Positions 5,639 to 13,290 of a stretch of 26,273 nt of DNA are shown here, piece after piece. The notes under the pieces were generated by a model. That model searched no databases, was not told the DNA's origin, and saw only the letters and a program-made list of their open reading frames with translations. The position numbers were made by a program, and so were the translations under genes. The DNA comes from Clostridia bacterium (GTDB lineage Bacteria; Bacillota; Clostridia; Christensenellales; Maliibacteriaceae), in contig JAGBGW010000019.1 of NCBI GenBank assembly GCA_017935825.1, positions 1-26,273 on the forward strand, in the 5' to 3' direction. How positions within the stretch are numbered: the stretch's first letter is position 1; the number at the start of each line of letters is the position of its first letter.

Positions 5639-5812
5639 TTAATACTTGCGCTTACGTGCAGCTTCAGCCTTCTTCTTACGCTTTACGCTGGGCTTCTCAT
5701 AATGCTCTCTGCGGCGGATTTCAGCCATAACGCCAGCACGAGCACACTTACGCTTAAAACGTTTAAGGGCGCTTTCCAAAGATTCGTTTTCACCCACTCG
5801 GATTTCCGACAT
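5639..5812 (-). CDS. rpsU: 30S ribosomal protein S21 (57 aa)
   Basis: Below the ORF-track cutoff; translated by hand: [68 protein letters not shown]. Confidence 0.97.
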
Positions 5813-5892: not shown

Positions 5893-5921
5893 ATTATAAG
5901 ACTTCTGTCAGTTTGTGTCAA
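5893..5921 (-). promoter_or_regulatory. Sigma-A promoter of rpsU
   Basis: Perfect TTGACA (5921-5916), 17 bp spacer, TATAAT (5898-5893). Confidence 0.9.
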
Positions 5922-5948: not shown

Positions 5949-5981
5949 TTATGCCATCTGTTCGGTCATCTGCTTGCCGCC
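5949..5981 (-). repeat. Second copy of the last 33 bp of the HIT gene (other copy 6110-6142)
   Basis: GGCGGCAAGCAGATGACCGAACAGATGGCATAA versus the gene end GGCGGCAAGCAGATGACTGAACAAATGGCTTAA: 30/33 identical, and both read GGKQMTEQMA*. Confidence 0.95.
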
Positions 5982-6109
5982 TCGTCCTCGCGGACTTCAT
6001 ATCACTCACCGCTTCGCAAGCTCACCGTTTCATTCATTTCGTCGCTCGTCCTCTTCGCAAAATTCCTTACGGCTTTTTGCGAGTTTTTCAAACGGCAAAA
6101 CATCAACGA
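5982..6109 (-). mobile_element. 128-bp structured insertion (MITE/REP-like or integrative-element scar) between the two HIT-end copies
   Basis: Bounded by the 33-bp direct repeat. Internal hairpins TCGCAAAA..CCGTAAGG..TTTTGCGA and GTCC-GCGA-GGAC; no credible CDS. The mobile origin is inferred. Confidence 0.5.
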
Positions 6110-6451
6110 TTAAGCCATTTGTTCAGTCATCTGCTTGCCGCCAAGGACGTGCAGATGCAGGTGCAGAACGCTCTGTGCACCGTCGCGGCCGGTGTTGACG
6201 ATGAGGCGATAGCCGCTTTCTGCGATACCGACTTTTTCAGCCATGATGGCTGCAACGCGCATCATGTGACCCAGCAGAGCCTGGTCTTCATCGGTGGTGG
6301 CAGCAACGGATTCCACATGCTTTTTGGGCAGTACCAGCATGTGCACGGGTGCCTGGGGATTGATGTCGTTGATGACGACTACCTGATCGTCTTCGTAAAT
6401 ATGGGGGGACGGAATTTCGCCCGAGATGATTTTGCAGAAAATGCAGTCCAT
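6110..6451 (-). CDS. hinT: Histidine triad (HIT) nucleotide-binding protein
   Basis: MDCIFCKI start, DINPQAPVHMLVLPKKH, HLHLHVLGG triad. AAGGAG RBS. Confidence 0.95.
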   Translation of the reverse strand: MDCIFCKIISGEIPSPHIYEDDQVVVINDINPQAPVHMLVLPKKHVESVAATTDEDQALLGHMMRVAAIMAEKVGIAESGYRLIVNTGRDGAQSVLHLHLHVLGGKQMTEQMA

Positions 6452-12042: not shown

Positions 12043-12963
12043 ATGAAACGAGCTTTTCGCTTTTTTATATGCGTGCTGCTTGTCTGCACGATGCTTTTTG
12101 CATCAGGCTGCGGCACATTGTCCTTTCCGGACATGGTAGAAAAATTTGATCTTGCACTGACCGGCTGTGATGTCGTCATCCATTTCCGCGACGAAATGTC
12201 CGGCGGTGCTGATGTTTACACCCGCCTGACAGGCGACGAGGCAAACGCCTTTATCACCGCAATTGCCTGCGGCCGCCAGATCAACGCCCCTAAAGAGGAT
12301 TACAGCATTCACCTGAGTGCTTCTCATCAGATTGTTTTGGAATCTGCAGGTTCTGAAAAGATGCAGATCTTCTACGATGAGGCAAACGATTGGCTCATCG
12401 CACAGATCGCGCAGCAAAAGGGTTCCAACACCATTATGCGTTACTACTTCTTCCGACCTGATCCGGTGTTCCATGCGCTGCTGGACATCGCCGCCGAAAA
12501 GCGAGCATCTACGGAGGATACTGATACACTGCAGACATCTTCGCTGGTACTTCGTGCCAGTATTACAAGCGACATGCTCGCTCAGGCCGGCACCGTGGTA
12601 GACTACGAGCTTTATACCGGCAGCTATGCCTATGCCGACGAAGCTTCGCTGTACCACATCTATACCAGCCAGGAACTGCCCGAGGTCGTGGAAGGTTCCA
12701 CCGGTCTTCTTGTTGCATCCCTTGGTGCCTGCCCCACCACAGGCTACTCGGTCAACATTTCCCAGATTGACTACACCGACCACCTGATCCGTGTGTTCCT
12801 GCATGTGGAATCCCCCATCTATCCCGATGATGAGGAAGTGGTGCAGACCTACCCCTACGTTATGGCAACCTGCGATCTGGACGATTTCCCGCTGGGACTT
12901 ACCGTGGCATTCATCGACCAGAACTACAACATTTTGGACGTGCAGACCATCCAGATGCCCTAA
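12043..12963 (+). CDS. Lipoprotein with a C-terminal PrcB-like (protease complex subunit) domain
   Basis: Signal peptide with lipobox (LFASG-C). C-terminal LGACPTTGYSVNISQI...VQTYPYV resembles PrcB_C; the N-terminal domain is not recognised. Confidence 0.7.
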   Translation: MKRAFRFFICVLLVCTMLFASGCGTLSFPDMVEKFDLALTGCDVVIHFRDEMSGGADVYTRLTGDEANAFITAIACGRQINAPKEDYSIHLSASHQIVLESAGSEKMQIFYDEANDWLIAQIAQQKGSNTIMRYYFFRPDPVFHALLDIAAEKRASTEDTDTLQTSSLVLRASITSDMLAQAGTVVDYELYTGSYAYADEASLYHIYTSQELPEVVEGSTGLLVASLGACPTTGYSVNISQIDYTDHLIRVFLHVESPIYPDDEEVVQTYPYVMATCDLDDFPLGLTVAFIDQNYNILDVQTIQMP

Positions 12964-12969
12964 AAACAT

Positions 12970-12998
12970 TCGACAAAATGGAATATCCATTTTGTCGA
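12970..12998. terminator. 13-bp perfect hairpin just after the lipoprotein stop
   Basis: TCGACAAAATGGA-ATA-TCCATTTTGTCGA. The only nearby U run is on the minus-strand side (AUGUUUUU). Confidence 0.65.
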
Positions 12999-13002
12999 GA
13001 CC

Positions 13003-13140
13003 TGCAGATTTTCCCTGTCGCCTTACGGCTCCCGGGCGCAAAACTCTGCAATGTAGGAAAACACAGTTTTCCTGCGCAAACGGCGTACATGCCGCCGTTT
13101 ACGGTATGAGATCAAGGGTTGCACCCTTGATGATCCTGCC
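13003..13140 (-). repeat. Tandem hairpin cluster (REP/MITE-like element or structured RNA)
   Basis: Four adjacent stems: 13003-13050, 13055-13073, 13078-13100 and 13111-13131. Confidence 0.55.
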
Positions 13141-13290
13141 AAATTACTTTAAATCCAATTCGGATAAGAAGTATTGGCTTAAGCTTGTTTTTCATTTTCC
13201 TTTTACGCAGGAAGCGTAGGAAGATCGAAAATAGATTTACCGTTTTTATCCACTGAAACCAAAAATCATTCGGAAAGGACGTACATCATC

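Follow-up and report, generated by a model that had tools for sequence, protein, structure and literature searches.

The hinT locus and its duplicated gene end

The window is the whole stretch of DNA that was analysed, 26,273 nucleotides in length. On its reverse strand, the gene of a HIT-family hydrolase (hinT) is followed by rpsU, and the features of this interval are collected in Table 1. The HIT product ends with GGKQMTEQMA*, and the proximal gene tail, read in the hinT sense, is GGC GGC AAG CAG ATG ACT GAA CAA ATG GCT TAA. A distal copy, 128 bases on and downstream of hinT, reads GGC GGC AAG CAG ATG ACC GAA CAG ATG GCA TAA, and the starts of the two repeats are 161 bases apart. The initial annotation of this DNA had described the arrangement correctly. 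The recurrence of the last 33 bases of hinT at a distance of 161 bases downstream was exact in coordinates and content, the leading 17 bases are identical between the copies, and the three differences (ACT/ACC, CAA/CAG, and GCT/GCA) are each at a synonymous third position. The insert, called the cassette below, joins hinT between codons 102 and 103, directly past the His-x-His-x-His motif. The rpsU promoter lies downstream of the distal tail copy and is undisrupted.

Table 1 Features of the hinT-rpsU interval, in window coordinates.
Feature	Position	Strand	Basis
hinT (HIT-family hydrolase), intact	6110-6451	-	ORF, 113 aa; Pfam HIT and DcpS_C on an identical product
Proximal, translated hinT tail (last 10 codons and stop), incoming type	6110-6142	-	Sequence comparison
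Distal, untranslated hinT tail, relic of the original host end	5949-5981	-	Identity with empty allele L026
Spacer, 26 bases, 3' of the new stop codon	6084-6109	-	Allele comparison
R, 102-base repeat-family member	5982-6083	-	Covariance model R1, 118 bits
Dyad CATCTGC-N16-GCAGATG, its centre between 6142 and 6143 being the left insertion junction	6128-6157	.	Symmetry scan
rpsU promoter: TTGACA, 17-base spacer, TATAAT	5893-5921	-	12/12 consensus matches
rpsU (ribosomal protein S21)	5639-5812	-	ORF; Pfam Ribosomal_S21 on an identical product

A scan with the 33-base hinT tail, with up to 3 mismatches allowed, returned only these 2 sites in the window, where 0.00 were expected from 100 shuffles. 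A repeat search of the window returned the same pair. Logan contigs from the source run and from two more runs of the same study cover the repeats and the insert with zero differences, and part of the insert structure is present in a Logan contig of a run from another study. Both tail copies are also found in the independent ENA assemblies L027, L028, and L061. The duplication is therefore real. An assembly artefact, a concern that had been raised with the initial annotation, is ruled out as its source by these several independent assemblies. The duplication of the hinT tail, with an intact HIT product kept, is thus confirmed.

A structured repeat family within the insert

The 128-base interior of the insert is composed of a 26-base spacer, which resembles the native hinT-downstream sequence of other alleles, and a 102-base copy of a repeat that is named R here. 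The cassette is gene-less, with no ORF of note. Read 5' to 3', R has a variable hairpin capped by a GUAA loop, then a strand rich in purines and a hairpin at the centre; a GTGATATG linker leads on to a GUCC-GCGA-GGAC hairpin, and the 3' terminus (...GACGA) is sharp. This terminus is sharp in about 40 copies, with G as the next base in 31 of 40, and in the window it coincides exactly with the junction to the distal hinT relic.

A covariance model of R (R1) was built from 7 copies. A search of the genome with the interior sequence, as had been suggested initially, gave two further copies, and the genome therefore has three in total (window 5982-6083 on the reverse strand, C265:1469-1569, and C34:3107-3219). 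Of 151 genomes sampled from the order, 41 gave matches to the covariance model, and copy numbers among these 41 range from 1 to more than 100; they are Eubacteriales, Oscillospiraceae, and Clostridia MAGs. More distant copies were found in another family of the order. One Eubacteriales bacterium MAG (G200) has at least 112 R matches, many of them at contig ends, and its R copies are embedded in mosaics of other hairpin modules.

The fold of R is supported by pairing and covariation. Across 19 copies from 6 genomes, 94.9% of cells pair, in an alignment that is model-fitted and favours structure, and compensatory double changes are present in 20 of 22 pairs. Zero shuffles reach the observed values, and the slid controls collapse. 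The hinT-sense strand is the one favoured by the GNRA loops (GUAA and GCGA) and by a G-U pair that hardly varies. Rfam 15 gave zero matches for R, searched with the window copy and 5 other loci. Exact-pattern scans for the R core in genome and metagenome contig collections gave zero matches, a junction-pattern scan of contig collections gave four matches, all due to chance, and the 194-base region was without a match in phage and plasmid collections. The R family of structured repeats is undescribed and without an Rfam entry, and it is dispersed or mobile. The initial reading of the 128-base cargo as the remnant of an element is thus changed: the cargo is gene-less as proposed, and it is mostly a member of a dispersed repeat family instead of a unique remnant.

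The flanks of other R copies were compared with those at hinT. At about 40 other copies, neither gene-end relics nor long flanking repeats were found, and flank repeats of 5-8 bases were not enriched at 40 copies. The repeat-less flanks indicate that R insertion normally creates no att-like duplications. For the C34 copy, a search by the protein encoded beside it, which had no match on record, gave no empty site.

Other hairpin clusters were observed near R or resemble it. Directly 5' of the C265 copy, short hairpins whose stems vary are repeated in tandem, each set apart by an unvarying GTGATAT spacer (C265 1577-1654, reverse strand); this array matches the Rfam Gut-1 RNA (RF01706, 65 bits, E 2e-11), and R contains the same GTGATATG linker as this array. 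Downstream of the C34 copy, at about 1760-1850, tandem hairpins with ATGAATTG spacers and variable GC-rich stems were found. In the window itself, a back-to-back hairpin cluster at 12962-13145 (reverse strand) has one AGCCGUAAGG cap, as in the 5' hairpin of R, and is preceded by GCCGTTT, as in the 26-base spacer; the R model does not match this cluster. In a distant family, an R copy (G012:C6 1016-1118, locus L130) lies about 200 bases downstream of hinT, past a truncated P-loop ORF. It was considered as a related case and rejected, as another small ORF intervenes and there is no hinT relic; its position is probably a coincidence.

R inside integrative elements

Four single high-scoring R copies were examined in other genomes (G005, G009, G028, and G074). 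All four sit within integrase-bearing elements, with a serine recombinase or a tyrosine integrase 3-5 kb from R. In G005 and G009, the element is inserted in an Xre-type HTH gene and is 88-92% identical between two families, and about 195 bases separate R from its left end. Directly after R, which is in sense orientation, come a Cys_rich_VLP gene and a RepA_N gene, and a large serine recombinase is found 3 kb further, at the opposite element end. In G028 and G074, R is upstream of an AAA_25 gene, and a tyrosine integrase adjoining a tRNA gene follows 4-5 kb on. In all four elements the genes that follow R are replication genes, and R is internal and not at an att end. R is therefore one of the modules of which integrative elements are built, with its place in their interior. 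Neither the right end nor the left end of the G005/G009 element resembles the R terminus, and the idea that the R end serves as the recombinase arm of this element was rejected for this reason.

Filled and empty alleles among strains

The strain set consisted of contigs that encode an identical or near-identical HIT protein and whose flanking genes are 94-99% identical. An empty allele with one GGKQMTEQMA end had been predicted among relatives, and it was found. The empty allele L026 has a lone GGKQMTEQMA end with 100% identity to the distal copy over 301 bases, downstream DNA included, and L059 is a second empty allele. The hinT-rpsU gap is 136 bases in empty alleles versus 297 in the window, a difference of exactly 161. 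In a related congeneric species (G001, L005), the tail codons are likewise ACC and CAG. The identity of L026 and the ACC and CAG codons of G001 show that the distal copy is the displaced original host end and that the translated copy arrived with the insert, as the initial annotation had supposed.

Only insert-bearing alleles (window, L027, L028, L061, and L032) have the cassette-type ending GCT TAA TC, in agreement with an insert-derived translated copy. One cassette-type tail reads GGCGGCAAGCAGATGACT GAA CAA ATG GCT TAA TCG. The CAA codon travels with the GCT TAA TC ending except in L061, which has AAA, and it is not exclusive to filled alleles, since the empty allele L059 also has it. Cassette-type tails are diverse among strains. 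A third hinT allele (L024, L025, L033, and others) has the tail GGT GGA AAA ... GCG TAA and a different 135-base spacer element, E3, downstream of hinT.

The filled allele L061 combines two of these types. Its cassette interior is identical to that of the window at 127 of 128 bases, plus a 10-base variant, and its hinT body resembles the window and not the third allele. Its distal copy and the next 135 bases are 100% third allele, which L024, L025, and L033 show unfilled. Past GACGA, the relic in L061 is of host type from its very first base, with the junction GACGA/GG (a slash marks the join) as in the window. The two tail copies of L061 differ at 7 of 33 bases, and each matches a different allele. 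With the left junction TTG/GGC GGC and the right junction CGA/GGT GGA, the common bases are GG only; the window junctions share 17 bases, since the host and cassette tails happen to agree there. The gene-less insert is thus polymorphic between strains and sits at the same bond in two different hinT haplotypes. It follows that the cassette entered, or was copied into, two haplotypes at one and the same phosphodiester bond, and that the host tail was left unaltered both times.

These comparisons bear on a simple explanation of the direct repeats, namely that R transposed as a MITE with target-site duplication and that the coding copy later drifted synonymously. The direct repeats do bracket a small element of a repeat family; however, 33 bases is far above the usual duplication length, R has neither terminal inverted repeats nor a constant short duplication, and about 40 other R copies lack a flanking duplication of at least 5-8 bases. 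In addition, it is the non-coding copy that matches the empty allele in full (100%), whereas the coding copy has 3 differences in 33 bases where the background divergence is about 1.4%, and the L061 copies, with their 7 differences, match two alleles. A long target duplication is excluded by L061 and by the repeat-less flanks of the other R copies, and the MITE origin as a whole is scarcely credible.

Several alleles are mosaic. The distal copy of L027 has the ACT codon. The unfilled L055 has a chimeric end, GGC GGC AAG CAG ATG ACT followed by GAA CAG ATG GCG TAA TCCATCG, which is the tail that a crossover between both L061 copies would leave. Of the 5 filled alleles, 3 (L061, L032, and that of the X4 contig) have cassette-linked variants (CAT GTC CTS/TTG) also on the upstream side of the junction.

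The insertion point

Two 7-base arms of an inverted repeat, 16 bases apart, flank the insertion point of the empty site, which lies exactly midway between them; the arm at 5967-5973 stands here in place of that at 6128-6134. Such a dyad occurs at 0.10% of the window junction positions, a figure to be read with the feature having been noticed post hoc. In the same post hoc check, 14 of 25 positions around the junction were symmetric. The joint between the R end and the new tail, judged by eye, has symmetry at about chance level.

Search for an integrase or parent element, and comparison with microCIMEs

The initial annotation had expected a larger, integrase-bearing island at this site in some relatives, and a 161-base circle formed by recombination between the copies. 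Neither was found. About 25 strain contigs have no integrase-bearing or larger island at hinT, and no integrase-bearing island adjoins hinT among the R matches in the genomes sampled from the order. A circle or excision joint, including a 161-base skip, was not seen in assembled contigs. The view of the insert as a minimal non-autonomous element or scar thus held in one part, as the insert is small, gene-less, and strain-polymorphic, and was not borne out in the other, the integrase-bearing parent at hinT. On sequence comparison, site-specific integration at hinT is plausible.

MicroCIMEs are gene-less, att-flanked remnants of ICEs or IMEs, 130-220 bases long, that were described in Streptococcus salivarius at the 3' ends of rpmG, rpsI, fda, and rplL (PMC7563491). 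They are the closest known kind for the hinT cassette. In both cases, a small gene-less unit that is polymorphic among strains lies between direct repeats of the 3' end of a protein gene, and the gene-proximal repeat keeps the gene intact. The direct repeats of the hinT cassette (33 bases) include the 3' end of the target gene, recombination, conjugation, and mobilisation genes are absent, and its 161 bases fall within the range of 130-220. Unlike microCIMEs, the cassette stands alone and not in tandem with an ICE or IME, it has no known cognate integrase or parent, its target is hinT, and its interior is a dispersed structured repeat whose natural terminus is the right junction. The junctions of one haplotype (L061) share GG only, unlike a tyrosine-integrase core.

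A microCIME scar in the strict sense would be left by an ICE, IME, or prophage that integrated in the hinT 3' end and was then deleted to 128 bases between attL and attR, and the attP of this parent would have carried the hinT tail. The order of the tails, with the element-type tail adjoining the gene and the host tail distal, would be explained in this way, as would a size within 130-220 bases (PMC7563491), and four genomes have R as a part of integrative elements. The deletion, however, would have had to stop precisely at the natural R terminus on one side and at the crossover on the other, and the dead scar would then have had to enter a second haplotype. No parent element was found at hinT anywhere searched, and the phage and plasmid collections were without a match. 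A strict scar is therefore improbable in our judgement.

Origin and spread of the cassette

The mosaic alleles suggest a different course, in which one illegitimate join was made and was then spread between strains by homologous repair, with no dedicated recombinase. The start would be a type D lineage (like L032) that had R between hinT and rpsU. Through either homology-facilitated illegitimate recombination or a template switch at the R end with its many hairpins, the hinT(D) tail, the spacer, and R would have come to lie ahead of a host hinT tail. For the spread, a host 3' end would pair with the distal copy of the donor, be trimmed to the homology edge, and copy R and the new tail. Such priming would automatically give the same junction and a fully host-type relic. 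The chimeric unfilled end of L055, the distal ACT of L027, and the cassette-linked variants upstream of the junction in L061, L032, and X4 all fit this course. It also fits the hinT-rpsU spacer as an indel hot spot (E3 and a repeat-less two-gene island, see below), the lack of att-like repeats at other R copies, and the lack of an integrase at hinT.

Homologous spread nevertheless meets difficulties at the right junction. With a third-allele recipient, the crossover to the right of R is expected in a 20-base identical block or in rpsU, and a chimeric or donor-type relic is expected; the L061 relic is host-type from its first base, which homologous spread explains only if the repair had a special geometry. 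How the first R/GG junction arose is not accounted for by this course. The position of the junction exactly at the dyad centre is a further point against it, though a hairpin-directed break could also explain this position. We consider homologous spread a serious possibility that falls short of being probable.

The reading that we favour, with about an even chance of being right, is that of a non-autonomous, microCIME-like cassette, for whose position-specific insertion an enzyme would be supplied in trans. Read along hinT, the cassette consists of the gene tail of a foreign allele (10 codons and the stop), 26-36 downstream-like bases, and the 102-base R, whose canonical 3' terminus (...GACGA) forms the right junction. 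The working gene tail of the cassette replaces the host tail, and HIT stays intact because this tail is supplied. The host tail is displaced downstream, where its 33 bases persist as a relic ahead of the rpsU promoter. Two mechanisms may be considered. The crossover could be confined to the GG common to both junctions, in the style of a serine recombinase, or the machinery that makes the R termini could carry along 59-69 bases of the former hinT flank of R. Later homologous recombination, between the copies and between strains, would then reshuffle the 33-base repeats.

The cassette reading agrees with junctions that share GG only, with the dyad, with the spare gene tail, with a cassette that is almost the same in both haplotypes, and with the occurrence of R in integrative elements. 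Against it stand the roughly 40 other R copies without att-like repeats, the internal position of R in those elements, the lack of an integrase or parent at hinT in the strain contigs and sampled genomes, and the lack of a circle or excision joint in the contigs. The variants upstream of the junction match the co-conversion expected from homologous repair and also count against it. A 161-base circle is, moreover, small for recombinase synapsis.

A further proposal concerns the role of R. R might be a portable att-, nick-, or origin-like cis-acting site that is shared with integrative elements; together with a spare gene tail, it would make a mobile 161-base cassette that is repeatedly inserted just past the catalytic His triad of hinT with the gene left active, by a GG crossover or by a cut at the dyad centre, with the enzyme encoded elsewhere. 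This proposal is speculative and rather unlikely. A TnpB-guide-like reading, in which the flank after R would be a guide for the proximal copy, was set aside by reasoning only, because a filled allele would target itself and R occurs in mosaics.

Should insertion of the hinT cassette be active and position-specific, the cassette would rank with the smallest known integrating units, being made of a structured recognition module and a replacement gene tail only, and coding sequence beside a catalytic motif would be usable as a landing site without host cost. If homologous repair is the true course, the locus would be an ordinary and well-resolved case of inter-strain recombination making partial gene duplications. 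Whatever the mechanism, the R family is a candidate cis-acting site or RNA of poorly studied elements of gut Clostridia.

Comparison with other mobile and repeated elements

Elements such as Tn4451 and Tn5397 and phage integrases represent the large serine recombinases, which use a crossover dinucleotide and an attB that is an imperfect dyad of about 40-50 bases. The hinT crossover could likewise be confined to a dinucleotide, within coding sequence. The attL-like and attR-like junctions of L061 share only GG, and the hinT target is an imperfect dyad centred on the crossover, a feature noted post hoc. Serine recombinases are present in the own genome and near R in G005 and G009; the serine and tyrosine recombinases of the own genome include those on C278, C209, C238, and C13. 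The hinT cassette differs in that it has no recombinase gene in cis and the joint between its R end and the new tail has no clear dyad, and the ends of the G005/G009 element are unlike R.

REP/BIME, ERIC, and Correia sequences are small structured intergenic repeats. R is similar to them in its length of about 100 bases, its many hairpins, and its presence in multiple copies between genes; it follows genes in sense orientation, occurs in hairpin mosaics, and breaks assemblies. In contrast to these repeats, R has no terminal inverted repeats or target duplication, has a strongly covarying multi-helix fold, and is found as a single copy inside integrative elements in several families. A Y1/RAYT transposase of the REP/BIME kind is lacking in G200, which has more than 100 R copies: no Y1 transposase (PF01797) was found in this genome, and G000 has four.

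Mobile introns and homing endonuclease genes spread by homing, with co-conversion of flanking markers. The hinT insert resembles them in its one fixed position in a conserved gene that stays functional, and in donor-type variants that are linked to the insert on one side. It differs from them in that no intron, intein, or nuclease gene is present, and hinT is kept whole by duplication of its tail and not by splicing.

Other indels between hinT and rpsU

Further small insertions were observed in the same spacer. E3, the element of the third allele, is small and structured, with a length of about 110 bases, and copies of it with 70-72% identity are present in the own genome at C259:11171-11273 and C226:1209-1310. 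The copies elsewhere mark the hinT-rpsU spacer as a landing pad for several small repeats. In a sister lineage (L062, L128, and L129), a two-gene island of 1.35 kb lies between the hinT stop and the rpsU promoter and encodes a 270-aa protein of unknown function and a HIRAN-domain protein. No hinT relic was found beside the island in these three contigs. The 270-aa ORF 3' of hinT in L062 was considered as a recombinase and was rejected, as it has only weak DnaJ/DUF matches and the island is without a hinT relic. L063 encodes the same HIT protein as the island-bearing sister lineage and does not have the island. Taken together, E3 in the third allele and the island in the sister lineage show that the hinT-rpsU spacer is an indel hot spot.

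The spacer of the cassette is itself variable in length. It is 10 bases longer (TCCGGYTTAA) in L027, L028, and L061, and the cassette total is accordingly 161 bases, or 171 in some strains. The 10-base indel, TCCGG(C/T)TTAA, is located just past the new hinT stop and is absent from the window allele. It repeats GGCTTAATC, which is the hinT end plus two bases, and looks like the product of slippage between 9-base repeats.
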